IMG/VR virus record: IMGVR_UViG_3300042564_002580
Span: 53,028 to 117,027 of that record
Origin: a virus
Direction: 5' to 3' (one strand)
Length of the DNA stretch: 64,000 bases
Shown here one piece after another: positions 409 to 31,200 of this stretch (positions are counted from its first letter, which is position 1; each line of letters begins with the position of its first letter). The translations under genes and the position numbers were made by a program. The notes beneath the pieces were generated by a model, which was given only the letters and a program-made list of their open reading frames with translations, searched no databases and was not told the DNA's origin.

Positions 409-1090
409 AGAAGTTCAGCCAAGGCAAATGTACACTATGTTTGACATTGTGTTTCACGATAGAGGAATAGTTTATTTTGAAAATGTAATTAGTTATCCAG
501 AGACCCTGTTAAAAGTTATGGAAGACCTAGATTCTAACCCAAAATCACATAGCGGAATACCTGAATGGAGCAAGTGGGGGGCAAGCAACGATGATAATCA
601 TGGGTATGGAATTCAAAAGTTTATTGATACCTCTAAAAAGCTTATGAACACCGATGATGAGTTTTTAAACAAACAAGTTTTGTATGTTGTTAATAGCTTA
701 ATCATGGCCCCAGAAATGTGTGCAAAAAGATATGCTGAAATAATGCGTAGAGATGCATCTAGAATCCAAAAAGTAGATAGCACACCAGAGCAGGTTAAGA
801 TGGGCCTAGATTATATTAAGGTTGCTAAATATGACACTGGTAAAGGTATGGGTCCGCATTGTGATGCTGAAGATCCGTCTGGTACTGGACAAAATCTAAA
901 GTACTCCCTAGTTTGCTATTTGAATGATGATTACGAAGGTGGAGAAATTTACTTTAAAAATCAAGATATAAAGATTAAGCCAAAGGCAGGTAGCCTTGTT
1001 CTATTCCCTTCAGTTCATCCATATTTACATGAATCTCTTCCAGTTACAAAAGGAAATAAGATCATGTTTACTACTCATTGGATGGTTTAG
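398..1090 (+). CDS. 2OG-Fe(II) oxygenase (P4H-like)
   Basis: HCD iron motif, YLNDDYEGGEIYF, KPKAGSLVLFPS, distal His (LHESLPV), K at the 2OG-binding position. Confidence 0.9.
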   Translation: MEIREVQPRQMYTMFDIVFHDRGIVYFENVISYPETLLKVMEDLDSNPKSHSGIPEWSKWGASNDDNHGYGIQKFIDTSKKLMNTDDEFLNKQVLYVVNSLIMAPEMCAKRYAEIMRRDASRIQKVDSTPEQVKMGLDYIKVAKYDTGKGMGPHCDAEDPSGTGQNLKYSLVCYLNDDYEGGEIYFKNQDIKIKPKAGSLVLFPSVHPYLHESLPVTKGNKIMFTTHWMV

Positions 1091-1129
1091 TCGATATCCA
1101 ATAGGATTGGTATCTGATATAATTTAAAT

Positions 1130-2893
1130 ATGTCATATTACCTTTTAGCAATTAAAGACTCTCCTCTAGGCTTATGGAAGCTAGATGAGACATCTGGATC
1201 TGTAGCTTATGACACTTCTGGTTGCGGAAATAATGGTTCTTATGTTGGTCAGATATCTAGGTCTAGTTTGCCAATTGTATCTGGAGGATCACATTCTAAT
1301 AAAATAGACAGCGTTAACTACTTACAGTTTACATTATCAAAAGATTTTTCTGGAACAAATGGCACTGGTGGGTTTGCAACAACAGACACTTACGATAATG
1401 ACTTCACATTAGAAGTTTGGTTTCATCCAAAAACCTTAACATCCTTAACACCCATACTTGCTGACTCAAATGGCATAGGTCTGTATTGGGATAAAGGAAA
1501 TGTCGTATTTAAATTAGAAGATCAAAGAATTGATTATTCAGTTCCAAACCCAGATAGAGTAATTCATGCTGTTGGAGTTTACTCAGTTAATTCAATCATG
1601 TTGTATGTAGACGGCATTTTGGTTGCATCTAAATCAGTAGATTTTAAGTTTACAAATAGTAGTGTCACTCTTTTTTCTGGACCATCTTCTGGCTCAGAAT
1701 ATTTTATAATTGATTGCCCAGCCGTATATAGGTACTCGTTATCACAAAGAGCAATATCTTCACACTATAATAACTTGTTTTTAAATAATGATGAGCAGGT
1801 ATCTGTTCCAGATCTGGGAGAGCTTTTTAGAGCTGCAGAAAAATATCAAGACATAGAAACAAAATATGTTTATCCAATTCAAGAATCTTGGGAGACTTTG
1901 ATTTATGATAATGAGGCTTTGTCATACAACCCAAGCAACAATAGTATACGTTTAAATTCAGGGTTTTCTAATGGAGAGTTTGTAGAGGATGTAGTTTTAA
2001 ATATTACAAAACAATACGTATCTTCAAAAATAGAATGGGTCTCATCTAAAGGAGTCTCCGTGTATGTTTCAGAAACATCAGCGCTTGGGCCATGGAGAAT
2101 ATGTTCAAATGGGTCTTCTATACCAGAATTTACACAGGGTTCTAGTTTTTCTTCACAAAAAATACTTTACTTTAGAATAGTTTTTGACTCATCAAATCCA
2201 GATATTTATCTTCCAGAACTATACTCTTTAAAGATTTACTTTCATTCTGAAAAGAAAATGTTTGCACATAATGGAGGAAGTACGCTTTCAATATCTCAAC
2301 CCACTACTGGATCAACTTGGGATTTTGATGTTTCTAACAACAGCTACCCAGCTAGAAGTCGAAACTACCATAACGGAATAAGACCAAAATCTTCAGCATT
2401 TTTTATAGACTCAGTAAATGATGTTCGTAATATTGAAATGATATTTACCCCAAAAACGCTTTCTAGCGGAAACCTAATATTTAATAAGACTGGCGCAATA
2501 GAGACATCTCTTTCCTGGGCGGCAGGCGGAGAAATATCAAAATCTAACATTAGCAACATATATATAAATGGTCAGGATGTATCCTCAGCAACCAATATCT
2601 CATCATACTTATATATAGATGAGCCAAATTATATATTGATAAAAACTTCTAGCATAATATCTGGGCCTATTTGGTTTAATGGCAAGCAGATATTGGGAGT
2701 AAGGTCTAATGTCCTAGATGACAATATGTATCAAAATATTGCCCTATATTCAAATCCAGATATTAGCCACCAAAATCATTATAACCTGTATACAGGTAAA
2801 TCTGCATCTATTGGGCAAGGTTCGTCAATGGAAGTGACAGAAGAGTCGGTATCTACCTACTCTAGAGACAGAGTTGTGTTTCAGATTATATAA
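1130..2893 (+). CDS. LamG/concanavalin-A-like domain virion protein
   Basis: N-terminal SPLGLWKLDETSG..AYDTSG..NNG, FTLEVWF, HAVGVYS...LYVDG are LamG hallmarks; lies upstream of the portal. Confidence 0.75.
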   Translation: MSYYLLAIKDSPLGLWKLDETSGSVAYDTSGCGNNGSYVGQISRSSLPIVSGGSHSNKIDSVNYLQFTLSKDFSGTNGTGGFATTDTYDNDFTLEVWFHPKTLTSLTPILADSNGIGLYWDKGNVVFKLEDQRIDYSVPNPDRVIHAVGVYSVNSIMLYVDGILVASKSVDFKFTNSSVTLFSGPSSGSEYFIIDCPAVYRYSLSQRAISSHYNNLFLNNDEQVSVPDLGELFRAAEKYQDIETKYVYPIQESWETLIYDNEALSYNPSNNSIRLNSGFSNGEFVEDVVLNITKQYVSSKIEWVSSKGVSVYVSETSALGPWRICSNGSSIPEFTQGSSFSSQKILYFRIVFDSSNPDIYLPELYSLKIYFHSEKKMFAHNGGSTLSISQPTTGSTWDFDVSNNSYPARSRNYHNGIRPKSSAFFIDSVNDVRNIEMIFTPKTLSSGNLIFNKTGAIETSLSWAAGGEISKSNISNIYINGQDVSSATNISSYLYIDEPNYILIKTSSIISGPIWFNGKQILGVRSNVLDDNMYQNIALYSNPDISHQNHYNLYTGKSASIGQGSSMEVTEESVSTYSRDRVVFQII

Positions 2894-11832: not shown

Positions 11833-12170
11833 ATTTAGCCGCTTTAGAGGGCCAAGTTTTTCTTTTAGGACATTGGAAGAATTACGAGGAGTTAGAAGAG
11901 AATTTATCAATGCCAGAATTGATTCAGACAATAACTGCAATCAATCAAAAAGAACATAACCAGAGAAAGTTTGCAGCATCACTAAAAGGAATCCAATTAG
12001 ATGATGATGCAGAAGAAGAAAAAGAAAAAGGTTCTACCTTTGAGGATATCCAAAGAAGAGCCCTTGGAATTAAAGCATCAGCAGATGATGTTGTTGGTTT
12101 ACAAGGACCCTTCGCAGCACAAGCTGGATTTGGAATTGGCGCAGGGTTAGGATACTCTAGGAGTAATTAG
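11790..12170 (+). CDS. Tail assembly chaperone -1 frameshift extension (gpGT-like)
   Basis: C-CCA-AAC at 11790-11796; the -1 frame is open from 11790 through the 11910 ORF to the stop at 12170. Confidence 0.8.
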   Translation, partial: PKPNSGSGTGWSELDLAALEGQVFLLGHWKNYEELEENLSMPELIQTITAINQKEHNQRKFAASLKGIQLDDDAEEEKEKGSTFEDIQRRALGIKASADDVVGLQGPFAAQAGFGIGAGLGYSRSN

Positions 12171-15100
12171 TGGCTGACGAACAAATTGTAACCAGTATAG
12201 TCGCCAAAGCCGACTTATCTAGCCTTGTGTCTGAAGTACACAGGGCTAGTTCTAGTCTCCAACAATTACAAAGAGAGTTGCTTGCATCTAACAAGGCAAT
12301 CTCTGCTTCAACAAAATTAGCAAACAACTTATTTAGAGATACTTTAACTAGTAGCGGACAGTTCTCTAGTCACTTCGTAAACCTTAATTCAGATGTAGAT
12401 AAGTTTGGTAAAAACTTAGATGCTGGTAGATTAAAGCTAAAAAACTATTTCCAGACATTTAGAGAACACGCTACAACGCAAAAGGGAATGATCAGAGAGC
12501 TTGCCAAAGAACAGGTAATGCTTCAGAATTCAGTGCTGCAGCCATTAGGCAGAAATGCTCAAGGCTTAATGCAGTACAACGTTATGATCCCAAGAGGATT
12601 AGATGCTGTAAAGAATAGTGCACAGCTGGCTCGTATGGAGCTGCAGATAATGAATCGTGCACTATCTGAAGGAGCTGGATCTTTAATTAACTGGGGTAAA
12701 AATACTCAGTGGGCAGGTCGTCAGCTTACAGTTGGACTTACAGTTCCTCTAACGATGTTTGGTTCTGCCGCAGGAAAAGCATTTAGAGAAGCAGATCAAG
12801 AGCTAGTAAGACTTACAAAGGTTTATGGTGGATTAGCTGCAACATCTGCAGCAGATTTAAAAGCAATTAGAGAAGAAGTAGTACAAACAGCAAAAACTTT
12901 ATCTCAAACAATGGGTGCATCTTTTAAAGACACTATTGCTTTAGGTGCTGATATTGCAGCAACTGGAAAAATGGGCAACGATCTATTAGGCTCAATAGAA
13001 GAGACAACAAGACTGTCCATCCTGGGTGAAGTAGATAGACAAGATGCGATGAAGGCTACACTTTCGATTCAAACCGCATTTAAGCAGAACACAGAACAAC
13101 TTACAGAATCAATTAACTTTCTTAACGCAGTTGAAAACCAGACGTCTACAACTCTTAACGATTTAGTAGAAGCTATTCCAAAAGCTGGTCCAGTTATACA
13201 GCAACTAGGCGGAAGCATTGAAGATTTAGCTTTATACATGACAGCAATGAGAGAAGGCGGTATCAATGCATCTGAAGGAGCAAACGCATTAAAGTCAGGA
13301 CTTGCTTCATTAATTAACCCAACAAAGCAAACAGTTGGAATGATGTCAGATTTTGGCATAGATGTAATGGGAATGGTTGCAAAAAATACTGGAAACACAA
13401 CTGGTCTATTAATAGATTTGCAGGGAGCGCTAGATAAGCTAGATCCACTAAGCAAGGCAAGAGCACTAGAGCAAATGTTTGGTAAGTTCCAGTTTGCAAG
13501 AATGAGCGCATTGCTTAACAACCTTGGAAAAGAAGGAAGCCAGACCCTTCAAGTTATGGATCTTATGAAAGCAAGTACTTCAGATTTGGCGGGAATAGCA
13601 GAGCGAGAATTAGGAATGATTACAGAGTCTGCATCTGGTAAATATAGAAAAGCAATTGAGACTCTCAAAGCCACTCTGGCGGAAGTTGGAGAAGAGTTTT
13701 TAGGTGTTGCTACTAAAATTATAAATGCTGCATCAAAAATATTAGACTTTTTTACTAACCTTCCTAGCCCAATTAAAAAAGCTCTTACATTTATGGCAGG
13801 ATTTACAGCATTAGTAGGTCCACTTATTATGTTAACTGGTGTGCTTGCAAACTTCTTCGGATATATAACAAAAGGAATAGTCCAACTTAGATCTTTCTTT
13901 ATGAGAGCAAATGGTTGGAAAATGCTTACGCCAGAAATTATTGCTGCTCAAAAAGCAGCAGAGATGGTTGAAAACGCATTCTATTCAGATGCAGCAGCAG
14001 CTCAAGTTCTACACAATGCCTTACAGAAGCTTGTTTTAGATTATCAAAATCTTCAGGCTGCATCAATGAAGAATGCAGTCCCAGTAAATCCAGGAGTTAC
14101 CACGGTTGCTGGAAATACAATTGTTGCAGCGGGAAGAAGAGTTGTAGATCCTAACGATCCATATGTTGGCGATCCTAATACTAGAGCGATGTCTCACATT
14201 AGACCGAGAGATCCCAATGCTCCAGCAACTTTATTTGGCGGAGTCCCAGGAGCTATACCAGTAAATAGAGGAATATCAAGAACTCCTCAAATTTATATGA
14301 ACGATAGGCTTCCAAACATTGAAGGATTAACAAGTGTAAAAGGAATATCTACAGGAATTGTTGCCCCAGAAGCAGCTAAATTCCATGCGCTTATGGCAAC
14401 TCTTGGTATGCAAACAGAGCAGGAAGTTGCAATGCTAAAGAAAACAATTGCAATGGGTGGAACTGTAAGTAGAGAGCTACTTGATACATTTGATGACATT
14501 CTACCTATAACACAAAGATTTGCAAATAGCGCAGCAGAACAATCGGCCCTAATAGTTCAACAAATGAGAAATGCAGAAATAACTGTTGATCAAGCAAAGG
14601 CAAGGATACTGGCACTCAATGCACAAATAGAAGCAGATATGGGCGCAGCTGTAAGCATGTATGCAGCTGGTAAAGGAAGATCAATAGATTTAACAAAAGC
14701 TCCTATGATGAATCAGCCAGTTGTTGATGCTAACGGACAATTTACATTAAGAGATTTATACAAAAAAGAATCTAACAGAACAGTAATGGAAGAGTTTGGA
14801 AGAGTGCGTGGAGTTAGAACATTTGGCGCACCGTATAGCATTCAAACAACAAGACTGCCTAAGTTTAATGAAGGTGGAGGAGTCGAAGATTTTGGTCCAG
14901 GGAAGACCATGGTTTCTGGACCGTCTTCAATTAATTATGACGACAGGCTGGGTAGCGTTCCAATCGGAGGCTATGTACTAAATCAATCTGCTTCAATGGA
15001 CCCAGCAAATGCTCCACTTGTTGAAATGGCTGCAGCTACATATGAAGACGGCGGAAAAATAACAGCAGCACTTACCCCACGGGAAGTAGTCTTTGGCCCT

Positions 15101-18100
15101 AGGATTCAAAGAATGCCTGAGCTGTATGCAGCAGTAGATGCAGCAAATAACGGATATAGTTTTGGCGGGCAGATCATGAGAGGCACATATGGATATGGAA
15201 GAGAAAGCGTATTATCAATATGGGCAAGATTAGTTAACTCTAAGGATTATCCAAAAGTTATTAAAGCAGCAACAATTGCCTCTGATGCTGCAATATTGTC
15301 AGCTCTTACTGGAATGGATATTAAAGACGCTACAAAACGCACAACTTCAGATTATGATTCAGCAACAAAGCATGCTAAAAAAGCTGCTAATGCAAATGGA
15401 ACAACAAAACTGGAAGAGTTTGTAAAAGCAAGAACAGCTCAGTTGATTAAATTAAGCAAAGAGCATCCAGATGCAAACTTGATTTTAGATGCCTATTCAA
15501 ATAAAAATAAATATGATCAGTCTGCAAAAGCATCTGGACACAAAAAAATTGATACAACGAACTACACAAGAACAATGCTGTCCGTAGTTGATGATCTAGT
15601 TGCTCAAGGAATTATAAGCCCAGGACAAGCCAAAAAGGTTCTTGGAATTTTAGGTGATGTTTCAGCTTCACCCGATCCTATTCATAAATCTCATTTTATG
15701 ACTGCAAAAGAATCTGCTTCAATCTTTAAGCCAGGAGAGCTAGAAAAGCTACTTGTAGCAGATGGAATGTCAAAAGCCGAAGCAGCAAAGTATGCTGGTA
15801 TTACTGGAGTTAGATCAAACAACTATGTTGGTCAATCTGCAGGATTAATGGGATCTTTTAATACCATGTTTGCTGGAATAGCATCAGGCAAGGGCGGCAA
15901 CTTTAAAGATGAGATTTCTCCATTTCAAGATGAGGCGAAGCGGAATTTTATAGAAGGAATTAAGAAGATTAAAGCTAAGCTAGGTATAAAAGGCAAAACA
16001 ACAATGCCTGAAATTATTAAACAGCTTACTACGCTGAAAATGAAATCTGGAGGTGGAATGTATGGCAGAATGATTCCAACACTCGGTGGAAGGTTAGCTT
16101 CCATGAACAGTTCTTGGATGAGACCATTAACTGGTCCAGCTGTTGGATTTTTTAACGCAGGAGGTCCAGTTGGTCCTGCTGATCTTTCAACAATAGGTAA
16201 CTACGAAGATTCTTCAGGAATATTTCAGCGCAACGTTGGGATGGACCCTAAGCTGGGATTTTTAATGGGGGGAATGATTCCAGGTGGATCTATATCTAGA
16301 GGCAGATCAAATTATGGAAATATTGCTCCTGCCCTAAGATTGCTTGCACCAGATAAACAATTAAAGATTTTAGCAAAGGCAAGAGAATTAAGCTCAAGAG
16401 GATCGCTAGGTAAATTTGCTGATATGCCAGTAACTGAATATGGGCATCAAATTTCTGCAAGCACAGGAATGAGTTATCCCGTACCTGGTGTATCTGGACT
16501 GTATAAAGTCGGTAACAAAAAAGTTTTTGTTAAAGGTGTTCCTAATGAATTAACTGCAGTTCATGAGCCAATTGGCACTCAAATTGCAAGAGATCTTTTT
16601 GGAGTACATTCTCCAGTACAAACAGCTAGAACAGTTGCAAATCCATTAGATCCAACAAAAAAAACCAAGCTACTTGCTCTAGAATCAGATTACGACCCAC
16701 GCTTTGCAAACACTAATGTGCCATGGGATGAAGATACAGTCCTTAGACAGCTTGCTAATTCTCTTCTTTTAAACAACAAAGATTTATCTAGAGCAAACGT
16801 GTATGGTAATTTTAATCCAGATGTTGGACAAGCTGGAGTATTACCTAAAGCATCTGGTAATACACGTCTTGCATCAGCTGATGAAATGAACTCTATGGAA
16901 AAGCAAGCAATGATTAATCTGCTTGCCGTTAAAGGTGGAGCAAGAAAAGATTTTGCACGTGACACTGCCCCAATAATTTCTCAAATGAGCCCAAAAAAAT
17001 ACGGCAAAAAAATGAAAAAGATATTAGAAGATGCCCGTCCAAAATTAGTAAAAATAATAAATGGTTTACCTGTAGATCTTAGACCACCTTATGAAGCAAT
17101 GCTCAAAAGATTGGATGATGGTATCGAGGTTGATTGGAGTAAATATCATGCCGTACATGCTAATCCAAAATATCTTAATGCTGGAGGACCAGTCGGTGGA
17201 GGTCCAGTTAAGAGAAATAGATCTGCTTACGGAAGGCCAGGCAACCCAGCAAAAAGAGCAGCTTGGGAAGCAGAACAACGTGCACAAAGAGAAAGGGATG
17301 CAGCGGCAGCAAGATCTAGAGCAGCATCTCATCAGATAAGTGGACAGCAGGCTTTAACAAGCGGCTTAGGTAGAGAAGCAGTAAGAACAGGTACAACAAG
17401 TTTCTACAACCCTGGTCAGGTAATTGTTAACAACGCCCTTGACCCATTTAGAAACTCTGCAATGATGAAGGCTAGATACCTTGAAGCTGGATTTAATAAC
17501 CTTGCAAATTCTGCAACAAAGGGTGCAGTTACATTAAGATATGGATTGATGACATCTGGAACTCATGTAAAGCAAGCTTATCAAGAGTATACAAAAAAAC
17601 TTGTTAATTCAGGAAGAGCATCACTTGCTACAATGAAAATGAATGCAGCAATAGCGCAAGCCGCTGGAAGCGTTTTTGCATCTGGAGTACGTGCAGAAAA
17701 TGCTGGAAGACTTGGACAAGCTTATCCTGGACAATATAGTATTAATCCCGCAACTGGACTTCCAATAAACACTGCAACTGGAAAGCAAGTTGGAATGATG
17801 AGTGGACCAGCAATTATTGGAAACTGGAAGCAAGCTGGAGATGGTGTCAACAGCAGAAAAGTTGGAACTTTAGGTTTTAGAAAAACAGAGTACATGGTTG
17901 GCGATAAAGTAATGACCGCAGCGCAGATGAAGGCTGCTGGAATGGCTGTTCCTCAAAAGCCAATGGGTATGGGCGGCGGAGCGATGGGCGCATCTATGGC
18001 TGGATCAATGGCTGGTATGGCAATGATGAGCCAAGAAAAAGTTTTGGGTATGAGTGGACAAGCTGCTGGTATGGGAGTTATGGGAGCCGCATCAATATTG

Positions 18101-20743
18101 CCTTTCATAGCTGGACCAGCTATAACTAAAGCTAGGGCTGGTCTTTCAGGATTAGGATCTGGCGTCAAGGCAATTACTGCAGGCACAATGAGTTTAACTA
18201 AAGCTATGCATAATGTTTTAATGGTTGCAAAAGGATTTGGCCCAGTAGGGTTAGCAATAAGCGCAGTTTTTGCAGGCTTTAAGATTTACAAGAAAGTTCA
18301 GGATGATTGGCAAGACGCAAGAATGGGTCTTTCCATGACAGCTAAAGCTGCAGAGCAAGCTGGAGTAAAGTATTTTAACTTGCAAGAAACAATGCAGGGG
18401 TACATAGATAAACAAAAGTTAGCAACAGCAGCCGCAAAGGGTTCAGCAAATAGTTCAATTGGAATGCCTGGTCTTCCTCAGTCTATAGAAGAAATGAAAA
18501 AGGCAAAAGAAGAAGGTAAGGGATTAAAGGATCTAATTGAATCTATTAATAGATCAACTAGTACGCAAGAAACACAAAGACTGGTATCTAATCAAAAAGC
18601 TCAATACATTGCAGCTGGAATGAGTATTGAAGAAGCAAATAAAAAGATATATGGTGCTTTAGCTAATAGCGATAAAGCATCTCAAGCTTATACCATGCTT
18701 GCAAATACAGAATTTGGAGCAATAATAGACAAGTCTTCAGCAGCAGAATTTTCTGTTGGAAACCTTGTAAATACTTTAAGTAAGGGCCCAGGAACTGCCG
18801 ATTGGTATAAGGAAGTCGGGAATGGTTTTGAAGGCCTTATAAACGTTTTCTCTAATGCTACTAAATCTCTAATTGGCACTAAAGACGAGCTTGGAAACGT
18901 TATAGACGAGTATAAAGCATATGAAATGGTTATGTCAAAAGCAGAAGCAAATAATCCTGGAATGAATAAGGAGATTGGTTCAGACGTATATAGTAATCTT
19001 GAAAAGACCCAACCCCTTCTAGCATCAATAACAAATCAAACAGACAGCATAAAGGGAATTTTAGCAAAATGGAAGTTATTTACTTCTGGAATTAATATAG
19101 ATTTAAGTAAGATTGATTCTACCTTAGCAATAAAATTAGCTGGGTTTACATCAGCAATTGGAACAGGTATTGCTGAATTAACTAAAGCTGCTGATAACGC
19201 GACAACATATGGGAAAACTGGAGCAGCCTTAGCTAAGCTACAAAAAACAATCGCTGCAACTTCAGCTGCTTCACAAAGAGCAAATGCAGCTTCTCAAAGA
19301 AGCGCACAGGAAGAATTAAAAGCAATTGCTAAAAAGATTAAGCTTATAGAAGAAGAAAAGAATAAAAAGCTAGAAGCGTTAAGAGCAACTCAAGATGCAT
19401 CAAACTATGCTTTAGAGCTACAAAAGCTACAAATAGAGTATGCCGATGCGGTTTCTCGTGGAGATATGGCAGGAGCTGCATCAGCAAGAATAAGCATTGA
19501 TCAGCTTACATCTAATAGACAAAGCGAGCTTGCGGCTAAAGCCATTGAAGATGCTGCAAATAAAGCCAAAGCGCCTTTAGAAAAAGATGCTGAGCGCATA
19601 CAGGATAGGTCTGATAAAAAAACAATTGCTTTTCAGAATGCCACGGATAATGCCGCATTAGCTGGCGAAATAATGACAACCATTACTGGATTCCAAACAA
19701 AGTATAATGATTTAACAACTAGAGCCATTAACGCAAAGCTTCTTCCTGATAAAGAAAGAGCAGCAGAAGAGTTAAAAATTACTGAAGAGCTAGTAGCTCT
19801 TATTAAGGAAATTCAAAAGGCTGGTTCTGGAAGTACTACATCTGCAAAAACAGTAAGAGAGGCATTCGGCACGTATTTTGATAAAGACGGAAAGCCAATG
19901 TCTCCTGGAACCACAACTTCTGGATCTCCAGTTGGATTTGATAAAAATGGTAAGCCTATATTGTCTAGCACAACAACAGTCAATAAAGGTGTTACAGATG
20001 CATTCCAAAGAGATTTAGCTGCTGTAGAAAAGCTAGCAACAGCAATAACTGGAAATGTAACAATTAAGCAACTTCGTGATGACGTTGTAAAAGCACTAGG
20101 AGGCTACAAGGCACCCGCACCAAAGGGTACTGTTGAATTTGGAAAGGATACAGTTCAGCAAGGTAGAGGAAAAAATGCAATAGAGGCTGCTAAAAACGCA
20201 AGATCTTCTGGATCCTCAAAGATGGTTAGCATTAATGATGTTGTATGGTATAGATTTAGCTGGAATGGGAAAGAGTACATAAGTAATGATTCTGGAACAG
20301 AAGTTTATTCATGGGATGACCAGAAAAAAACTAAGGGTGCTAGAGTTAAGTATGCCAACGGAGGATTAGCTAAAAACTTTGCTCCAGGTGGAGGAGTTTA
20401 TGGTCCAGGAACTGGAACATCAGATTCTATACCAGCAATGTTATCAAATGGTGAATATGTTATTAGGGCTCAATCGGTTCAAGCAATAGGGGTTCCTATG
20501 CTAGACAAGATAAACAAATTAGCAGGCGGAGGAATGGTAAGTTATGATGTTCCTAGGATGTCAAGCGGTGGCCGAATAAGATTTAACGAAGGAGGCCTTG
20601 CTTCATCTGGAAGCACATTGTATAATATCAATGTAGAGCTTAATGGAACTAATCTTACAGCGGATCAAGTTGCTGCATCAATTCATAAAGAAATGAGAAT
20701 TAGAGAAATGGCTGCTGGAGTAAATAGAAGGGTTGGTGGATAA
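12170..20743 (+). CDS. Tape measure protein (2857 aa) with internal cargo domains
   Basis: TP901-type TMP core (AVENQTSTTLNDL..AIPKAG, EGANALKSGL), hydrophobic segments, coiled coils, C-terminal GPGTGTSDSIPAMLSNGEYVI. Confidence 0.93.
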   Translation: MADEQIVTSIVAKADLSSLVSEVHRASSSLQQLQRELLASNKAISASTKLANNLFRDTLTSSGQFSSHFVNLNSDVDKFGKNLDAGRLKLKNYFQTFREHATTQKGMIRELAKEQVMLQNSVLQPLGRNAQGLMQYNVMIPRGLDAVKNSAQLARMELQIMNRALSEGAGSLINWGKNTQWAGRQLTVGLTVPLTMFGSAAGKAFREADQELVRLTKVYGGLAATSAADLKAIREEVVQTAKTLSQTMGASFKDTIALGADIAATGKMGNDLLGSIEETTRLSILGEVDRQDAMKATLSIQTAFKQNTEQLTESINFLNAVENQTSTTLNDLVEAIPKAGPVIQQLGGSIEDLALYMTAMREGGINASEGANALKSGLASLINPTKQTVGMMSDFGIDVMGMVAKNTGNTTGLLIDLQGALDKLDPLSKARALEQMFGKFQFARMSALLNNLGKEGSQTLQVMDLMKASTSDLAGIAERELGMITESASGKYRKAIETLKATLAEVGEEFLGVATKIINAASKILDFFTNLPSPIKKALTFMAGFTALVGPLIMLTGVLANFFGYITKGIVQLRSFFMRANGWKMLTPEIIAAQKAAEMVENAFYSDAAAAQVLHNALQKLVLDYQNLQAASMKNAVPVNPGVTTVAGNTIVAAGRRVVDPNDPYVGDPNTRAMSHIRPRDPNAPATLFGGVPGAIPVNRGISRTPQIYMNDRLPNIEGLTSVKGISTGIVAPEAAKFHALMATLGMQTEQEVAMLKKTIAMGGTVSRELLDTFDDILPITQRFANSAAEQSALIVQQMRNAEITVDQAKARILALNAQIEADMGAAVSMYAAGKGRSIDLTKAPMMNQPVVDANGQFTLRDLYKKESNRTVMEEFGRVRGVRTFGAPYSIQTTRLPKFNEGGGVEDFGPGKTMVSGPSSINYDDRLGSVPIGGYVLNQSASMDPANAPLVEMAAATYEDGGKITAALTPREVVFGPRIQRMPELYAAVDAANNGYSFGGQIMRGTYGYGRESVLSIWARLVNSKDYPKVIKAATIASDAAILSALTGMDIKDATKRTTSDYDSATKHAKKAANANGTTKLEEFVKARTAQLIKLSKEHPDANLILDAYSNKNKYDQSAKASGHKKIDTTNYTRTMLSVVDDLVAQGIISPGQAKKVLGILGDVSASPDPIHKSHFMTAKESASIFKPGELEKLLVADGMSKAEAAKYAGITGVRSNNYVGQSAGLMGSFNTMFAGIASGKGGNFKDEISPFQDEAKRNFIEGIKKIKAKLGIKGKTTMPEIIKQLTTLKMKSGGGMYGRMIPTLGGRLASMNSSWMRPLTGPAVGFFNAGGPVGPADLSTIGNYEDSSGIFQRNVGMDPKLGFLMGGMIPGGSISRGRSNYGNIAPALRLLAPDKQLKILAKARELSSRGSLGKFADMPVTEYGHQISASTGMSYPVPGVSGLYKVGNKKVFVKGVPNELTAVHEPIGTQIARDLFGVHSPVQTARTVANPLDPTKKTKLLALESDYDPRFANTNVPWDEDTVLRQLANSLLLNNKDLSRANVYGNFNPDVGQAGVLPKASGNTRLASADEMNSMEKQAMINLLAVKGGARKDFARDTAPIISQMSPKKYGKKMKKILEDARPKLVKIINGLPVDLRPPYEAMLKRLDDGIEVDWSKYHAVHANPKYLNAGGPVGGGPVKRNRSAYGRPGNPAKRAAWEAEQRAQRERDAAAARSRAASHQISGQQALTSGLGREAVRTGTTSFYNPGQVIVNNALDPFRNSAMMKARYLEAGFNNLANSATKGAVTLRYGLMTSGTHVKQAYQEYTKKLVNSGRASLATMKMNAAIAQAAGSVFASGVRAENAGRLGQAYPGQYSINPATGLPINTATGKQVGMMSGPAIIGNWKQAGDGVNSRKVGTLGFRKTEYMVGDKVMTAAQMKAAGMAVPQKPMGMGGGAMGASMAGSMAGMAMMSQEKVLGMSGQAAGMGVMGAASILPFIAGPAITKARAGLSGLGSGVKAITAGTMSLTKAMHNVLMVAKGFGPVGLAISAVFAGFKIYKKVQDDWQDARMGLSMTAKAAEQAGVKYFNLQETMQGYIDKQKLATAAAKGSANSSIGMPGLPQSIEEMKKAKEEGKGLKDLIESINRSTSTQETQRLVSNQKAQYIAAGMSIEEANKKIYGALANSDKASQAYTMLANTEFGAIIDKSSAAEFSVGNLVNTLSKGPGTADWYKEVGNGFEGLINVFSNATKSLIGTKDELGNVIDEYKAYEMVMSKAEANNPGMNKEIGSDVYSNLEKTQPLLASITNQTDSIKGILAKWKLFTSGINIDLSKIDSTLAIKLAGFTSAIGTGIAELTKAADNATTYGKTGAALAKLQKTIAATSAASQRANAASQRSAQEELKAIAKKIKLIEEEKNKKLEALRATQDASNYALELQKLQIEYADAVSRGDMAGAASARISIDQLTSNRQSELAAKAIEDAANKAKAPLEKDAERIQDRSDKKTIAFQNATDNAALAGEIMTTITGFQTKYNDLTTRAINAKLLPDKERAAEELKITEELVALIKEIQKAGSGSTTSAKTVREAFGTYFDKDGKPMSPGTTTSGSPVGFDKNGKPILSSTTTVNKGVTDAFQRDLAAVEKLATAITGNVTIKQLRDDVVKALGGYKAPAPKGTVEFGKDTVQQGRGKNAIEAAKNARSSGSSKMVSINDVVWYRFSWNGKEYISNDSGTEVYSWDDQKKTKGARVKYANGGLAKNFAPGGGVYGPGTGTSDSIPAMLSNGEYVIRAQSVQAIGVPMLDKINKLAGGGMVSYDVPRMSSGGRIRFNEGGLASSGSTLYNINVELNGTNLTADQVAASIHKEMRIREMAAGVNRRVGG

Positions 20744-24949: not shown

Positions 24950-25806
24950 TAACTAAATTTGGTAAGAGATTCCTTGCAAATTTTGTAGCAGGAAATTCTT
25001 CATTTGCTTCAAAAGAAATGGCTATCGGAATTGCAACAGGAACTGAGTATGCTTTGTCAGATAGCAACTCAAGATTAGGGTTTGAGTTTTATCGTGTTCC
25101 AATTAGGGTGGGCGGAATAGATATAGACTCCTCCGTATCACCAGTAAAGTATACAGTTATATATTCAGCTACACTTCCTACAAACATTGCAGGAAAAATA
25201 AATGAAATTGGAATCTACTCTGGTCAATCTTATTCAAGGAATTTATATGAAAGCAAATTCATATCTAATTTTGAATTGCCATATCAATGGAGTCCAGAAC
25301 CATCATTAGATCAAACAAATTATAGAGTTGGAGACAGCTCATTAATATTTACATCAAATGCGACGGCTCCAAGAGAGTACACACACGTACTTGATAGTAT
25401 GGATATATCTGGATACAACCCATCAGATACATTATCATTTTCATACAAAGCAAATGATGCAAACCTATCCTCATTAAAGGTAAGGCTATATAGCTCAGAT
25501 AACGATTATTTGGAGTTTACATTTACTGGACACTCAGTTGGATATAATATAAAGAATTTAAACATGTCTACTGGGGTATCAACAGGAACATTTAATCCAC
25601 AAAGTGTTGTTAAGTTAGGAATTATTGTTACTCCAACAACTGCTCAAACATCTGTATCTATGGATGGTCTTAGAATAAATGACGAGGACACCTTTGATCC
25701 AGAATACGGTTTAATAGCTAGGTCTTTACTAGACTCAACAATGATTAAAGTAATAGGACGAGAAGCAGCAATAGAATTTAAACTAGACCTATCGTTTGGC
25801 GAGTAA
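24946..25806 (+). CDS. Minor tail/baseplate protein (putative)
   Basis: MITKFGKRFL..MAIG..LGFEFYRVP..INEIGIY N-terminus resembles fibre-attachment proteins. Confidence 0.55.
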   Translation: MITKFGKRFLANFVAGNSSFASKEMAIGIATGTEYALSDSNSRLGFEFYRVPIRVGGIDIDSSVSPVKYTVIYSATLPTNIAGKINEIGIYSGQSYSRNLYESKFISNFELPYQWSPEPSLDQTNYRVGDSSLIFTSNATAPREYTHVLDSMDISGYNPSDTLSFSYKANDANLSSLKVRLYSSDNDYLEFTFTGHSVGYNIKNLNMSTGVSTGTFNPQSVVKLGIIVTPTTAQTSVSMDGLRINDEDTFDPEYGLIARSLLDSTMIKVIGREAAIEFKLDLSFGE

Positions 25807-28279
25807 CATGTCTGAACAGTATCCAGATCTAGGTATCACACAAAAACAAGATGGTGATTACTGGGATGTTGTAATTCCAGACTTAGACTGTAATACTGAT
25901 TACGCACTTCAGGTTGCTTGGGTATACAGCGATAAATCATTGGGCTCTAGCGAATTCTCAGATAGATTTAATTTCAGAACCCCAGGACCGTCTAGAGTTT
26001 GCCCAGCAAATGTATCTGCAACATGGGATGCTAAAGCTGGACTAAATGTTACATGGCAAAAAAATGATAACCGTGTAAAAAATTATGTAATTACTCTTGT
26101 GGCTGGTGGGTACAGAAGGTCGCACCTTATTTCAGCAACTGGATCCTCTTTAAACTACTCATGGATATTGACAAGAGAAAATAACATATTCCAATTCGGA
26201 GGAGTATTTAGAAAATCCTTTACATCTTTTTCTATCCAAAGCGTTTATGGAGATGGAAGCTCAGATGAATGTCCAGTAACCGTTGCAGAATATGTAGACC
26301 CAGTATGTTCTCATACAACACTAGCAGCCTCATGGAATGTTGTTAGCCAAAGCAACGGCATACTTGTTTCTTGGCAAGATAGTGCAACAGGATACGGAAC
26401 GTATAGAGAAACTAGGGTATACGTTTCAGAAACACCTAGCCCTTATAATTGGGAGCTTCGATATACTGGAATTGGTCCAGCTTCAATAACACTAGATACC
26501 CTAGCAACAGTTTATGTTAAACTAAATCATCTTTCTTATTCAGACTGTGAGTCTTTGAACTCAGATATAAAAGAAGGAAAAGCATACGACCCAATAGTAT
26601 TTGACGATTTACCACCAGAAAATAACTTTGATTTAGGATCTACTACCGTTGAAGAAGATTCAAATGGTCTATTTAATTTTGATAAAAAAATTCTTTTTAC
26701 ATGGACACAAAACACAGATACTTCAACTTCTGGATACAGAATAAGATACAAGACTGCTTCTGATACTAATTATACATATATGTCTGTTCCAGGAAGAGGA
26801 ACTATATCTACATATCTGTATGGATTAAAAGCGGGACAAGCTTATCAGATAGCTGTAACAACATACGATGTTTATGGAAATGATAACTCTCAGTATAAGC
26901 AGTATCCAGATATAGTTATCCCAGCAAACACATCATTAAAAACAGATGTAGCAATTTCTGCAGGAGATATGAAGCTTGGATATGGAATTGGTGGAAGCAA
27001 CTCAAATAAAGGTTTATACATTGCCCCAGAAAATTATTGGTATGTAACTGGAAATACCAGCGTTTCATCTTCTGCAAGATTTAAAGTTGGAGGAACAAAC
27101 GACTGGTTGCTTTGGAACGGAACTAATTTAGAAATAACTGGAAAAATAAATGCTAATGCTGGAGCATTTACTGGTTCTGTAGACATAGGAACATCATCTG
27201 TAGATGGACAACTTAGAGTAACAACATCATCTGGAAAATTTGAAATAGGAAAGCTAACAAATATTTCTGGAGAAAAGATTGGTATTGGAATCCAAGGAAC
27301 AAACTCCTCTGGTAAGCTTTTCCAGCTAGACACTGAATCTGGAATTATTGCTAACAAAGGAACAATTGCTGGTTGGACAATTGACGATACATCAATTAAC
27401 AAGGCTGGCAACGTAGGGTTCTTTGCCACAACAACTCCCTCAGATGTTGCAATTTGGGCTGGAGGATCTAGAACAGTAAGTCCTAATTTTTCAGTTACAT
27501 ACGCAGGAAAAATGATAGCTAAAGATGCCGTTCTTAAAGGAATGGTACAGGCTGGAGAAGGCGGATTTGGAATACTTATAGCAGATGCAACTACAGCAAC
27601 TGGTTATAGAGTTTCTAATGGGTGGACAATTGATTCTGCAAAAATAGTATCTACAAATGCAAGTTCTCAAGTAACGCTTGATGGATTGCAAGGCTCAATA
27701 ATAGGCGGAAATATTGTTGGATCAAATCATTATTTTATGAGCCCATCTGCATGGACGACAGCTTATCCTGGAGAGGGAAGCGGTAACCCAGGGAATGTTG
27801 ATTACATATCATCATCTGGTAATTTCAGACTTGCTAATGGAAAGCTAACATATGATGGAGATGAATTTAAAGTTCAAACAGATTTAGTTGCGTCTAACGT
27901 ATTTTTAGGAGCAACATCAAGTCTGGGAGATACAGCCAATTATTTACTAGGAAAGTCAACTACAATTGGTGGTGTAACAAAAGCTGCAGGAAGCTTTAGT
28001 TTAGGAAATGGTGCAATTAATTACACCTCTGGATCAAGTGTCTTAAATGTAGATGCAACTAGGATTGATTTTAATATTAGAAGTAATAATGATGGAACAC
28101 TTGGAGATGAAACAGTTGTTCAAGACGTAGATACTGGGGAGCTTACTTTAGGAAGAGCATTTTTTTACGGAGGAAATAACTACCCAGGAAGCACTACTGA
28201 TAGAGTAACGCATGCGGATGGAGATCAGGGCAGCGGAGCCTTTAAAAAAGGCGACATATGGTTAAGCAGGAAAGCATAA
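25796..28279 (+). CDS. Tail fibre/host-recognition protein with fibronectin type III domains
   Basis: FN3 motifs (SGYRIRYK..LYGLKAGQAYQIAVTTYDVYGN), Gly-rich beta repeats (GTIAGWTI), C-terminal GDIW; start may be ATG 25808. Confidence 0.75.
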   Translation: MASNMSEQYPDLGITQKQDGDYWDVVIPDLDCNTDYALQVAWVYSDKSLGSSEFSDRFNFRTPGPSRVCPANVSATWDAKAGLNVTWQKNDNRVKNYVITLVAGGYRRSHLISATGSSLNYSWILTRENNIFQFGGVFRKSFTSFSIQSVYGDGSSDECPVTVAEYVDPVCSHTTLAASWNVVSQSNGILVSWQDSATGYGTYRETRVYVSETPSPYNWELRYTGIGPASITLDTLATVYVKLNHLSYSDCESLNSDIKEGKAYDPIVFDDLPPENNFDLGSTTVEEDSNGLFNFDKKILFTWTQNTDTSTSGYRIRYKTASDTNYTYMSVPGRGTISTYLYGLKAGQAYQIAVTTYDVYGNDNSQYKQYPDIVIPANTSLKTDVAISAGDMKLGYGIGGSNSNKGLYIAPENYWYVTGNTSVSSSARFKVGGTNDWLLWNGTNLEITGKINANAGAFTGSVDIGTSSVDGQLRVTTSSGKFEIGKLTNISGEKIGIGIQGTNSSGKLFQLDTESGIIANKGTIAGWTIDDTSINKAGNVGFFATTTPSDVAIWAGGSRTVSPNFSVTYAGKMIAKDAVLKGMVQAGEGGFGILIADATTATGYRVSNGWTIDSAKIVSTNASSQVTLDGLQGSIIGGNIVGSNHYFMSPSAWTTAYPGEGSGNPGNVDYISSSGNFRLANGKLTYDGDEFKVQTDLVASNVFLGATSSLGDTANYLLGKSTTIGGVTKAAGSFSLGNGAINYTSGSSVLNVDATRIDFNIRSNNDGTLGDETVVQDVDTGELTLGRAFFYGGNNYPGSTTDRVTHADGDQGSGAFKKGDIWLSRKA

Positions 28280-31200
28280 ATGAGCTGGTGGAGAAAAGCA
28301 AACCTAAACGATGCTGGTAATATTGATGGCTGGATAAAAATAAGAAGCATTTGGAGAAAAACTAATTTAGGTGATGCAGGATCAACAGACGGTTGGTTAA
28401 GAATAAGAAGCGCTTGGAGATTTCAAGGATTAAATGCGTTAGGCGCTGGAATTTGGTATAAAATTTTTGGAGGGGAGTCTCCTTATCCAAAAGAAAACCC
28501 AAAGCTAATATTTGTTTCTCCAGATTCAAGCACTTCTGAAATACAATGCACTCAGCAAGATAAGATGTATGTTACAAGAGGGAAATGGTACGAAGACCCA
28601 TTATCATTTTTAATTAAAATACAAAGGTCTATAATCTCAAATTGGGATGCTCCAACAACATTAGTTAGCCAGGAGCTAGAGTACACAACATATCTAGATT
28701 CAGACTATTTAGATGAAGTTCCTAAGTTGCCTGCAGATAGACCAACAATAACATTAGACGACGTCAAAGCTAAAAGAGGATTTAGGGCACAGGTTCAAGC
28801 TGGGCAGGATGCCAATCCAACAGAATCAGACTACGCACTTGCAACTTCATGGTACCCAAGCCCAACAGGAATATTCCCAAGACTAACATTTGGATTTACT
28901 ACATATAGCACAGGAGATCAAATTGTTGAAGATGAAACAATCAGTATGCCTGAATTTAAAATATTTGGTTTTAAGTGGCAGTATCTTACTTCTTCTGCAG
29001 CATCATATCCAAACGGTCAGTACTTTCCATCATCTCGAACAGATGAGTTTATTGGGAAACAAATAATTGAGTTAACTGATTTTTATGGGGTTAGGATAGG
29101 TGCATTGCAAGAAGTTGATGTTTTGCCAATTCATCAATATTCTGGAAGTATAACATACACTCAAGCAATGATAGATTCTGGCGATGATTATATTATAAAT
29201 GTTTATTCGGTTGCAAAAGATTATTACTATAATAGCGGACTGTCTTTAGATGGACATATATCTGATCCAAATGAAACATCAAGAATTGCATCTTATGTAT
29301 TTACCCCTCCAAGGGAAATAGAAAACCCAGAAATAACAATATCAAATAGGACAAAAAGCTCTGTAGATATATCCTGGTATTCTCCAGATGCGGAAAGATA
29401 TAAGGTTAATATAATTGATTCTATTACAGGTAACTCTTTGCCTGGCTATCCATTAACCTCAACAACAAATACTTCTGCCAGCCCTTTTGGATTAACGGAA
29501 AACAGACTGTATACCGTTTTGGTAACGGCACTTGCTGGAGAAGGAGACAAGTACAAAAGCGACGAGGTTTCTAAAAGCTTTAGAACATTGTCGTCTGGAA
29601 TTGCAGCAGAATTAGGAATGCCTTACGACATAACATCAACAGGGTATAAGGTTGACATAACAAATTGGAGCACTATCAGTTCATTTGATATAACAGTTTC
29701 TGCAACAAGTGGAAGTGCGACAAGGTCCTCCGAAGTTATATCTGTAAGCAATGTTACATCGGGAGCCAATTCATGTCTAACAGCAACAACATCTAAAATT
29801 GATAATATAAACTTAACTTCAGTTTCCTATGAGTCAAAAGAGTCTGCTGCTAGATGTATTGTTATCGGAGGTACCTGGTACTGCTTATCTCTTGTTACGG
29901 GTGGCCTTTGTTCTAAATCAACCGAGACATACGACAAAACAATAAATGGATCATACTATGCAATTGTATGCTCTCAAACAGATAACCTATGCTGCCCTTC
30001 AGTTGTTCTTGAGCCAAAAGTCTACGGTGAATGGGTCACAGGACTTTGCACAGTAGCTCCACAAGATCCACAAAGAACAAGAACAAGGACATGGACCCAA
30101 ATTCAAAAAACAACTGCTCAAAATTGTGTTATTACAAATGTAGAGCTTTCTGGTGTAGATATAGAACAGATTGATTGCTGTGTACCAACATCCACTCTTG
30201 GAGCAAAAACTTATGGGACACCAAATGCTTGGGGCACATGTAATTTAAATACTGGACAAATTGGAAGAACTGTTCCGTGGACAGCAACAAAAACTAATTT
30301 TACTAGAGACTGTACCACAACTACAACAGAAGAAAGCGGTCTTGAAGTTCAGTATAAAGATTGTTGTACTGCCAGCTCATCTTTGGGAACTAAAACTTAT
30401 AGCGACTGGTCTCCATATGGATCATGTATTCAAGGAGAAAGAGCAAGCTATAGAACCTGGACTGCTATTCAAACAAATAATACAATTAACTGTACCACAA
30501 CATCTAACGAAGTTAATGGTACAGAATATAGATACACATCATGTTGTACAGCTGGTTGTACTTTAGGAACTAAAACTTACGGTGATTGGTCAGCTTACGG
30601 TTCATGTGTTCAGGGGGAGAGAAGACGACAAAGATCCTGGACTGCTATAAATACCTGTATAGATTCAAGCTGTAATATTATTTCTCAAAATGAATTAAAT
30701 AGCGTAGAGTATGAGTACACATCATGCTGCGTACAATCATGTACTACTGGAGCAAAAACTTATGGTGCATGGACAGCCTATGGATCCTGTATCCAAGGTG
30801 AACGTGCTAGATCGAGGAGTTGGACTGCTACACAATCATGCTTTACAACAAGTTGTACTAATACAACTGAAACAATTAGCGGTACAGATTTTGAATACAC
30901 TGGCTGCTGCACGGCAAGTAGTACAACTGGCACTAAAACTTATGGTGCATGGACAGCCTATGGATCCTGTATCCAAGGTGAACGTGCTAGATCGAGGAGT
31001 TGGACTGCAATACAGACTAATATTGATTCTAGCTGCAATACCACTACAACAGAAGTTAACGGTACAGATTTTGAATATACTTCATGCTGCACGGCAGGAT
31101 GTACAACTGGTGATAGAAGTTATAGCCCATGGGGGTCATGGGGTTCCTGTAGCCAAGGAGAACAAGCTAGAATTAGAACGTGGACTGCTATAGAGACATG

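Follow-up and report, generated by a model that had tools for sequence, protein, structure and literature searches.

The window, the whole stretch of 64,000 nucleotides that was analysed, comes from an uncultured long-tailed phage of about 117 kb. In its head-tail module the portal, protease and capsid genes lie upstream of one giant open reading frame on the plus strand, as do two small ORFs with matches only to function-unassigned PHROGs, and a 1,084-aa minor tail protein (phrog_10359) is encoded downstream (Table 1). By its profile matches the product of the giant frame is a TP901-type tape measure protein (TMP). It was matched by PF10145 with 94.9 bits (cutoff 33.2) and by TIGR01760 with 102.1 bits (cutoff 28.8), and the 14 PHROG families that matched the whole protein comprised 13 TMP families and one with no assigned function (phrog_21150). 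The core that carries the domain matches is more than 90% identical across relatives. Megablast of the TMP gene against cultured phages gave no match, and in tblastn searches with the whole TMP the matches were confined to the N-terminal ~650 aa, at 30-34% identity and mostly to TMPs of Streptomyces, Gordonia and Staphylococcus phages. Of 13 distant giant relatives 12 carry PF10145, and their further domains include NlpC/P60, M23, OmpA and HAD phosphatase. The hydrophobic windows of the Gly/Met-rich region of the query TMP lie at residues 1967-1986 and 2016-2037.

Table 1. Features of the TMP gene and its product (positions are those of the window)
Feature	Residues	Positions	Strand	Basis
TMP gene, 2,857 aa, GTG start		12170..20743	+	single open frame
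Conserved TP901-type TMP core	192-549	12743..13816	+	TIGR01760 192-549, PF10145 239-438
First hydrophobic, membrane-span-like segment	537-567	13778..13870	+	Kyte-Doolittle 19-residue window >1.5
Decayed module copy 1 (FNEGG…GPSSINYDDRLGSVPIGGYVL)	898-944	14861..15001	+	weak in-register HMM match; colinear with P0010 copy
FNEGG	899	14864	+	translation
YEDGG	958	15041	+	translation
Decayed module copy 2 (YEDGG-KITAALTPREVVF…NNGYSFGG)	958-1000	15041..15169	+	hhalign; colinear with P0010 953-987
YSFGG	996	15155	+	translation
Insert 1, predicted folded alpha/beta domain, allele A	1001-1327	15170..16150	+	AF2
FNAGG	1328	16151	+	translation
36-aa insertion between two joint copies	1331-1366	16160..16267	+	only in query genome
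FLMGG	1364	16259	+	translation
Joint FLMGGMIPGGSISRGRSNYG	1364-1383	16259..16318	+	kept in 23/23 relatives
Insert 2, predicted atypical protein-kinase-fold domain	1384-1667	16319..17170	+	AF2, VIA, Foldseek
LNAGG	1669	17174	+	translation
Joint LNAGGPVGGGPV	1669-1680	17174..17209	+	kept in 22/23 relatives
Gly/Met-rich stretch and two hydrophobic segments	1930-2037	17957..18280	+	composition, hydrophobicity
Strong junction module (YANGG…FAPGGGVYGPGTGTSDSIPAMLSNGEYVI…KLAGGG)	2725-2790	20342..20539	+	module HMM 90.8 bits
YANGG/FAPGG/LAGGG/MSSGG/FNEGG	2728-2805	20351-20596	+	translation
C-terminal short-joint cluster (LAGGG, MSSGG, FNEGG), empty cargo slot		20519..20596	+	comparison with relatives
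Terminal 52-aa segment		20585..20740	+	at C-terminus in all complete relatives

Recurrent motifs and the junction module

The sequence-only reading of this DNA had described the TMP as punctuated by recurring [FYLM]xxGG motifs, and every coordinate given for them was exact on retranslation. The recurrence itself was confirmed, both against shuffled sequence and among relatives. The TMP contains 15 such motifs, compared with a mean of 4.6 (sd 2.1) in 5,000 shuffles, none of which reached 15, and F, Y, L or M occupies position -3 in 14 of the 26 GG runs against a background of 17% (binomial p 2.5e-5). Four of the instances had not been listed before, namely MREGG (residue 360), MKSGG (1291), MIPGG (1369) and MGMGG (1932). 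The motifs at 899, 958, 996 and 1364/1369 are kept in all 23 distinct relatives and the one at 1669 in 22; those at 1291 and 1932 are poorly kept (0 and 2 of 23), and motif 360, kept in 23 of 23 but located inside the PF10145 domain, is not a joint.

By sequence comparison, the motifs belong to a larger module of about 65 aa, either as its edges or as what is left of decayed copies. A full copy is laid out as φxxGG, a GPGTGTSD loop, an IPAxLSxGExVI core, some 20 residues and a second φxxGG, and at decayed joints only the φxxGG(x)[IV] edges remain. The region of the strong copy matches 23 PHROG families, of which 16 are TMPs, one is an annotated endolysin and six are function-unassigned, and it also matches TMPs of two solved phages, Douge (with two copies) and JBD30. 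The module HMM detected one copy in λ gpH (residues 730-784, E 2.8e-8), flanked by FATGG and YATGG, and gave no match in T5 pb2, the best stretch of which scored -4.1 bits. The module has no family name in Pfam or NCBIfam, and no description of it or of a TMP-borne kinase was found in the open-access full-text literature. Its core, SDSIPAxLSxGExV, was considered as a possible S24/S26-like serine autoprotease strand, which it resembles; this reading was dropped because in many copies another residue stands in place of the serine (GDVVPAML, KDTEPALL).

A degenerate internal copy of the module had been proposed near position 14920, where GPSSINYDDRLGSVPIGGYVL starts at residue 917 (~14918). By itself this copy is weak, with a module HMM score of -1.1 bits and a conditional E of 0.083 over residues 898-944. 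Nonetheless, it is supported through an intermediate, P0010, because the P0010 stretch colinear with it (863-1001, aligned to query residues 860-1010 at E 5e-11) holds two significant module copies, at E 2.4e-11 and 4.2e-8. The latter (P0010 953-987) is colinear with decayed copy 2, for which hhalign of the module profile against query residues 963-997 gave an E of 5e-4 and a probability of 30%.

Of 150 clusters of related giant TMPs, 134 contain the module, in one to six copies. Among their representatives, 16 have no copy, 22 have one, 35 have two, 54 have three, 20 have four, two have five and one has six. Within 338 near-full copies, φxxGG lies no more than 30 aa upstream of the core in 184 (background 6.6%) and downstream of it in 93 (background 7.9%). 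When 132 kinase-like domains were inspected for a module within 80 aa, 38 were flanked on both sides and 42 on one.

Two inserts between joints, predicted to be folded

It had been proposed that the internal motifs delimit two segments of about 300 aa. Structure prediction per segment agreed with this, as both were predicted to be folded, with disordered ends that fall on the motifs. The modelled part of joint FLMGGMIPGGSISRGRSNYG, from residue 1373, is disordered in AF2 (mean pLDDT of 41 over the first 10 residues), and joint LNAGGPVGGGPV, at the end of the insert-2 model, has a pLDDT of ~47. The joints are glycine-rich and, in the predicted monomer, disordered, and the models support the view that the boundaries of autonomously folding domains lie there. 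At the site of the 36-aa insertion all 23 aligned relatives have one joint only.

Insert 2 was modelled with a pLDDT of 90.7 and a pTM of 0.88. All 50 matches listed by VIA were kinases, led by CotH (Z 11.4, rmsd 4.0, 212 aligned residues) and including MavQ (9.8), PI4KIIα (9.6) and CtkA (9.4), and the top Foldseek matches were also kinases, with CtkA first (E 1e-3, probability 1.0). In an alignment of 31 sequences of the insert-2 family (23-86% identity), four positions do not vary (K83, E94, N171 and D179), and two more, D166 and G181, reach a conservation of at least 90%. The corresponding residues of the query are K1455, E1466, D1538, N1543, D1551 and G1553; in the model they are placed on a strand (78-85), a helix (88-105) and the loop after a helix (149-161), the catalytic roles being assigned by position and not by residue-level structural alignment. 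The query deviates at L1534 and N1536, where the family has a nearly invariant R and D. On the basis of the predicted fold and motif positions, insert 2 can confidently be assigned an atypical protein kinase fold with an intact predicted catalytic set. Like CotH, CtkA, HipA, PI4KIIα, MavQ and Fam20C (VIA Z 8.3-11.4, 194-216 aligned residues), it has a predicted bilobal kinase fold, with the β3 Lys, αC Glu, DxxxxN loop and DxG on the expected secondary-structure elements. It differs from these six in that identity is 9-13% with no linking sequence profile, and in being embedded in a structural protein.

No curated kinase family matched insert 2 in Pfam, NCBIfam or the PDB sequence profiles, where the rows obtained were at chance level; PHROGs gave nothing significant, and tblastn against cultured phages gave no match. 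A scan of 185,579 genomes with insert 2 returned 69 pattern matches, none of which was confirmed, and a near-length search for stand-alone forms gave four matches, all on contigs of 5.5 kb or less, and no support. In BFVD, similar kinase-like folds are found in large phage proteins annotated as portal, head-morphogenesis or ADP-ribosyltransferase proteins. The kinase-fold domain itself occurs in about 150 sequence clusters, all of them from metagenomes only. Within the clade of the query, insert 2 is colinear and ~77% conserved; judged from these alignments, it is fixed and widespread among giant TMPs and not a swappable cassette within the clade.

Insert 1 was modelled less firmly (pLDDT 72.2, pTM 0.77), with residues 1-12 and 290-327 of the fragment disordered. 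Its model matched no known fold, with a best Foldseek E of 0.18, a best VIA Z of 4.3 and no match in the ESM Atlas, and nothing significant was found in Pfam, PHROGs or NCBIfam.

Exchange of domains and the possible role of the joints

When the TMP was aligned with its relatives, different sequences were found to occupy two of the slots. Insert 1 exists as two unrelated alleles, the second of which (allele B) is present in 8 of the 18 distinct insert-1 sequences; the alleles are only 26-30% identical in the first ~100 aa and have no detectable similarity beyond, whereas the flanks are 75-95% identical. The C-terminal slot, empty in the query, holds different combinations of cargo in relatives, which have an extra 300-1,100 aa between query residues ~2790-2806, after the strong module, and the last 52 aa. 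CHAP and LysM in this cargo are Pfam matches. GNAT-like cargo scored 18.4-18.7 bits, below the Pfam cutoffs of 20.7-23.6, and HExxH motifs were read directly in the cargo modules of four relatives, with no Pfam or NCBIfam profile match. The terminal 52-aa segment is 60-98% identical and always last, with or without cargo, and by analogy with other tails it may be the hub-bound end (PMC11445458, PMC13033339, as excerpted).

Each insert-1 allele occurs both with and without CHAP-LysM cargo, and the existence of all four pairings implies recombination. Homology breakpoints among 12 sequences lie within 10 aa of a motif in 20 of 68 cases, against 10.5% for random positions (p 1.4e-5), and the other 48 lie farther than 10 aa from a strict motif. 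Long DNA repeats were considered as substrates and rejected: repeats at the joints are only 14-23 nt long, at 78-86% identity, and homologous recombination between joints within one genome is therefore not obviously favoured. The reading that the joints bound swappable domains, already put forward in the sequence-only reading, is supported by the alignments for insert 1 and the C-terminal slot, but within the clade it does not extend to insert 2.

We put at roughly 70% the probability that the TMP consists of units strung together with a recurrent joint between them, that it serves as a carrier of domains to the host, and that the joints are where its cargo is reshuffled. The units between joints would be a conserved kinase-fold enzyme (insert 2), a two-allele domain (insert 1) and, in relatives, the C-terminal cargo. 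As the TMP would be expelled tip-first ahead of the DNA, it could double as a carrier of domains to the host envelope and cytoplasm, a role that is suggested by present knowledge of how TMPs are expelled. The lumen of the tail tube is too narrow for three copies of a ~30-kDa domain in the folded state, so the domains would have to travel unfolded and refold. The repeated joints would be the places where recombination reshuffles cargo and leaves domains unbroken, and the whole protein would be a tape-measure version of the phage 'polyvalent' injected proteins.

Another reading, which is tentative and to which we give somewhat less than an even chance, takes the joints as proteolytic sites. On this view the protein would be a polyprotein, and cleavage at φxxGG or the module, or a short way upstream, would release the kinase, insert 1 and the relatives' C-terminal cargo as separate polypeptides during tail assembly or ejection. 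T5 pb2 is described as cut after R1127 (PMC10038345, as excerpted), that is, between FVPR and AEGG, although this site is not φxxGG, as the F is at -6, and pb2 is without a detectable module. For λ gpH, loss of a ~14-kDa piece from the glycine-rich C-terminal region is described (PMC12617516, as excerpted); such a fragment would begin near residue 710-725, just upstream of the λ module copy, and the query piece from module to end (133 aa) is of similar size. However, in the excerpted text of the same source the gpH site is unmapped, the protease is unnamed, and T5 and λ are the only TMPs known to be cleaved. The joints, being predicted to be disordered, would be accessible to a protease, yet the query TMP contains neither a protease-like domain nor an HExxH motif. 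For cleavage at the motifs, the analogy with T5 and λ is no more than suggestive.

A more far-reaching proposal is that giant TMPs are an unrecognised route of enzyme injection, in which a catalytically active atypical kinase would pass into the host cytoplasm before the DNA and phosphorylate host targets, for example in defence or translation, and in which the module shared with λ gpH would be a general signal for cutting and hub re-anchoring. We regard this as rather doubtful. If it were true, the module would define the processing site from gpH to gpH* in λ as well as the boundaries of exchangeable warheads.

It is unlikely that the joints are no more than flexible linkers of glycine or structural parts, for instance a hook docking the TMP in the hub or tube, with domains that serve tail assembly or channel formation and a kinase fold that is a structural pseudoenzyme. 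In JBD30 gp46 a hook was predicted at residues 1022-1066, and its authors speculate that it anchors the TMP to the baseplate (PMC11445458, as excerpted); this hook region is the very stretch matched by the module. In T5 the 43 residues before the cut dock in the opened hub (PMC10038345, as excerpted), and the position of insert 2 is fixed in most giant TMPs, as would be the case for a structural part. Nonetheless, the K/E/D/N/D set is invariant or nearly so across the 31 sequences of 23-86% identity, which would be unexpected for a pseudoenzyme, and the cargo of relatives consists of recognisable enzymes (CHAP+LysM; NlpC/P60, M23, HAD phosphatase). Furthermore, in close relatives as much as 1,100 aa can be present in or absent from the slots, which a purely structural role would not readily explain. 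That the recurrence of the motif is a meaningless by-product of composition is scarcely credible, since this reading, although the TMP is glycine-rich in places and instances 360, 1291 and 1932 are unconserved or away from junctions, is already contradicted by the shuffles, by the conservation of six motif positions in 22-23 of 23 relatives, and by the flanking counts of a homologous module found in hundreds of TMPs.

Comparison with known systems

TMPs are generally regarded as rulers that also form a channel, and some have a cell-wall hydrolase attached. The family of the query TMP goes further in having a conserved predicted kinase-fold enzyme, slots in which close relatives have different enzymes at corresponding positions, and a recurrent junction module, and the joints may be natural sites at which cargo could be engineered into phage tails.

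Like the query, T5 pb2 and λ gpH are long TMPs with hydrophobic segments. T5 pb2 has a cell-wall hydrolase between its cut and the terminal coiled coil, the position in which relatives of the query have CHAP+LysM, and λ gpH shares the junction module, with its glycine-rich region adjoining the module copy. The query TMP differs from both in being 2-3 times longer, in having internal as well as C-terminal joints, and in carrying a kinase-fold domain and a fold-unmatched domain in mid-chain; T5 pb2 further differs in the module that it lacks at the level of detection. Since the module is common to λ gpH and lies next to the gpH cut region, it offers a concrete element to mutate in λ and a handle on how and where gpH is processed.

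The polyvalent proteins (Iyer et al. 2017, PMC5512222, as excerpted) are alike in that a single giant, virion-associated polypeptide combines many enzymatic domains unrelated to each other, in a repertoire that overlaps with the domains predicted here (cell-wall hydrolases, kinase and, as candidates, metallopeptidase-like HExxH and GNAT) and in variation through recombination. They are characterized by at least two unrelated effector-type domains; the query has the kinase-fold domain and insert 1, and relatives add CHAP+LysM and more. In contrast, the examples in the excerpted text are packaged in heads or transferred by conjugation, tape measure proteins are not mentioned there, and no recurrent junction module is described. 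The polyvalent kinase clade is reported in the same excerpts to be without a C-terminal lobe, whereas insert 2 has a helical C-lobe in the model. The TMP-related effector Sle1 of actinobacterial contractile injection systems (CIS; PMC13277306, as excerpted) is likewise similar by description: it has a TMP-derived scaffold whose C-terminal functional domain can be exchanged, and it is ejected from the tail-like tube into which it is loaded. Effectors of the Sle1 type are cargo of bacterial injection systems, whereas in the query the candidate cargo is built into the ruler of a phage tail itself.

Organization of the tape measure protein

The virus record that contains the window is 117,027 bp long, with an estimated completeness of 98%. 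Judged by its profile matches, the product of the long open reading frame studied here is a TP901-type tape measure protein (TMP), matched by PF10145 (94.9 bits), TIGR01760 (102 bits) and 14 PHROG families; 13 of these are TMP families, and the function of the remaining one is unknown. The family profiles cover only residues ~1-860 and ~2725-2810. The gene is located in the head-tail module, with portal, protease and capsid genes upstream and a gene for a 1,084-aa minor tail protein downstream. None of the 2,857 residues is a cysteine. The Gly/Met-rich stretch (GMGGGAMGASMAGSMAGMAMM…) has a glycine-zipper-like look, and one distant relative gave a weak Pfam Gly-zipper_YMGG match. Three more very large ORFs follow the tail genes on their downstream side; no PHROG matched the 827-aa or the 1,232-aa one.

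Features of the tape measure gene and its surroundings (window positions in nucleotides, residues in the TMP)
Feature	Window	Residues	Strand	Description
TMP gene	12170-20743		+	single open frame, 2,857 aa
Hydrophobic segments		537-567, 1967-1986, 2016-2037		
Insert 1		1001-1327		
Query-only insertion	16160-16267			36 aa, in frame
Insert 2		1384-1667		
Gly/Met-rich stretch	17957-18100			followed by two hydrophobic segments
20-aa tandem duplication	19877-19977			FDKDGKPMSPGTTT… / FDKNGKPILSSTTT…, a little ahead of the strong module (repeat family D4)
Strong copy of the junction module		2725-2790		
Very large ORFs	25796-31978			827 and 1,232 aa
Very large ORF	39278-42547			1,089 aa

The sequence-only reading described a TMP punctuated by [FYLM]xxGG motifs (φxxGG, called joints where they separate domains), and every motif coordinate that it listed was exact when checked on the translated ORF. 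The protein carries 15 such motifs against 4.6±2.1 in shuffled sequences, a count reached in 0 of 5,000 shuffles, and F, Y, L or M occupies position -3 in 14 of its 26 GG runs (p 2.5e-5). Motifs 899, 958, 996 and 1364/1369 were kept in 23/23 distinct relatives and motif 1669 in 22/23; 1932 and 1291 were not conserved (2/23 and 0/23), and motif 360 is conserved, yet lies within the TMP core domain. Joints 996, 1364 and 1669 have in common a more extended pattern, GGx[IV]…G…[RK]…YG.

The strong copy of the ~65-aa junction module is a C-terminal module common to many TMP families: of the 23 PHROG families that match it, 16 are TMP families. No entry for it was found in Pfam or NCBIfam, and a search of the open literature for its peptide motifs returned nothing relevant. 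Two copies are present in the TMP of mycobacteriophage Douge and one in JBD30 gp46, and an HMM built from the module detected 370 copies, spread over 155 of the proteins collected for this analysis. Among 150 representatives of related giant TMPs, 54 carried three copies, 35 two, 22 one and 16 none, while four, five and six copies were seen in 20, 2 and 1. Both ends of the module are φxxGG: in the 338 near-full copies the motif lies at most 30 aa upstream of the core in 184 (background 6.6%) and downstream of it in 93 (background 7.9%). The strong copy is the sole significant one in the query (90.8 bits). It was proposed from the sequence that a degenerate copy lies near 14920, and this was supported through a related giant TMP, P0010, although the query copy itself is below significance. 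Residues 860-1010 align (E 5e-11) with a P0010 region having two significant tandem copies, and residues 963-997 match the module core by hhalign (E 5e-4, probability 30%); on these alignments, motifs 899, 958 and 996 are the edges of two decayed modules.

Exchange of sequence at the joints

In IMG/VR 35 related loci were found, the complete TMPs among them ranging from 2,795 to 3,925 aa. The TMP body is colinear in all relatives up to residue ~2790, and variation was of three types, namely insert-1 alleles, a duplicated joint and C-terminal cargo, all of them at joints. Insert 1 was predicted to be a folded alpha/beta domain with disordered ends (pLDDT 72.2, pTM 0.77), which found no fold match with Foldseek or VIA and no family match in Pfam, PHROGs, NCBIfam or the ESM Atlas. 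Its allele A is shared by the query and 10 of 18 distinct insert-1 sequences of relatives, the other 8 having allele B. The alleles are 26-30% identical across the first ~100 aa and show no detectable similarity beyond; they begin to diverge ~12 residues past the YSFGG glycines, and the divergence extends as far as the NxGGMIPGG joint. The query-only insertion has a copy of the FNxGG joint on either side (1328/1364), opens with NAGGPVG, the same residues as at joint 1669, and is absent even from relative L003, which is 88% identical to the query.

Relatives carry 300-1,100 aa of cargo after the strong module and ahead of the final 52 aa. It comes in at least eight different arrangements, whose units include CHAP+LysM (Pfam), a conserved unit X, GNAT-like units scoring under the Pfam cutoff, four different HExxH-bearing units and others. 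The HExxH modules, ~200-400 aa each, were found in L012, L022, L026 and L028 (HELGH, HETMHH, HEYAHH and HEFAH, respectively); none matched a Pfam or NCBIfam model, and they may be novel metallopeptidase-like domains. The expectation that different sequences would occupy the slots between motifs held for both insert 1 and the C-terminal cargo. Since all four combinations of insert-1 allele with presence or absence of CHAP-LysM were seen, recombination is required. The 12 C-terminal regions compared had 68 internal homology breakpoints, of which 20 fell within 10 aa of a φxxGG; for random positions the share was 10.5% (p 1.4e-5). The remaining 48 were farther off, some of them at a joint decayed to FENGI. 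The best-supported reading is that of a modular TMP whose autonomous domains are set apart by a recurring joint and whose slots are reshuffled through recombination between relatives.

A predicted kinase fold in insert 2

Insert 2 was modelled from a 31-sequence alignment (A1) with pLDDT 90.7 and pTM 0.88, the joints forming the disordered ends of the model (its first 10 residues and last few). Foldseek against the PDB placed CtkA first (E 1e-3, probability 1.0), followed by HipA, Fam20C, Vps34 and CK2, all kinases. In VIA-align against 48,161 chains there were kinases only among the 50 matches listed, the best being CotH (Z 11.4, rmsd 4.0, 212 aligned), with MavQ (Z 9.8), PI4KIIα (9.6) and CtkA (9.4) also in the top rows. 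Alignment columns K83, E94, D166, N171, D179 and G181 (query K1455, E1466, D1538, N1543, D1551 and G1553) are invariant or near-invariant, and map to the strand, helix and loops of the model at kinase catalytic positions: the β3 lysine, αC glutamate, catalytic DxxxxN and metal-binding DxG. The query deviates at two other near-invariant positions (L1534, N1536). No sequence profile from Pfam, NCBIfam or the PDB recognised insert 2; the best-supported prediction, from the model, is a conserved enzyme domain of kinase fold.

A search at E≤1e-3 returned 156 representatives of this domain, in proteins of median length 2,862 aa and mostly at residues ~750-1010; PF10145 was present in 12 of 13 examined. 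The domain was found solely in metagenome-derived proteins: 50,697 cultured phage records gave no match, and the genome collection no confirmed one. Folds resembling it are present in BFVD, within large phage proteins that carry portal, head morphogenesis or ADP-ribosyltransferase annotations. Distant giant TMPs also carry NlpC/P60, M23, OmpA and HAD phosphatase domains, and in two of them, P0019 (1030-1154) and P0092 (1458-1591), a HAD-type acid phosphatase domain immediately follows the kinase-like domain.

Delivery, processing and known systems

Because TMPs are known to be expelled, the domains would be delivered to the host, and the need of a kinase for ATP would indicate the cytoplasm as the destination of insert 2. 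With regard to processing, T5 pb2 is reported to be cleaved after R1127, between its hydrophobic stretch and its peptidase, and the C-terminal piece to remain in the tip (PMC10038345). The cut site reads FVPR|AEGG, and no module was detectable in pb2 with the module HMM. In λ, gpH is described as shedding a ~14-kDa peptide of its glycine-rich C-terminal region, neither site nor protease being identified (PMC12617516). We located a module in gpH at 730-784, between FATGG and YATGG; the computed start of a 14-kDa C-terminal fragment is near residue 710-725, slightly upstream of the module. For JBD30, the authors predict the equivalent region to be a hook, and speculate that this re-anchors the TMP following cleavage (PMC11445458). 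In the context of T5, λ and JBD30, cleavage near the C-terminal module is plausible for the query TMP, if less likely than not, and cleavage at the internal joints is less likely still.

The closest concepts to this protein are the T5 and λ TMPs, which bear enzymes and are cleaved; the polyvalent injected proteins of Iyer et al., a paper that makes no mention of tape measure proteins; and the TMP-derived CIS effectors, which are reported to have exchangeable domains (PMC13277306).
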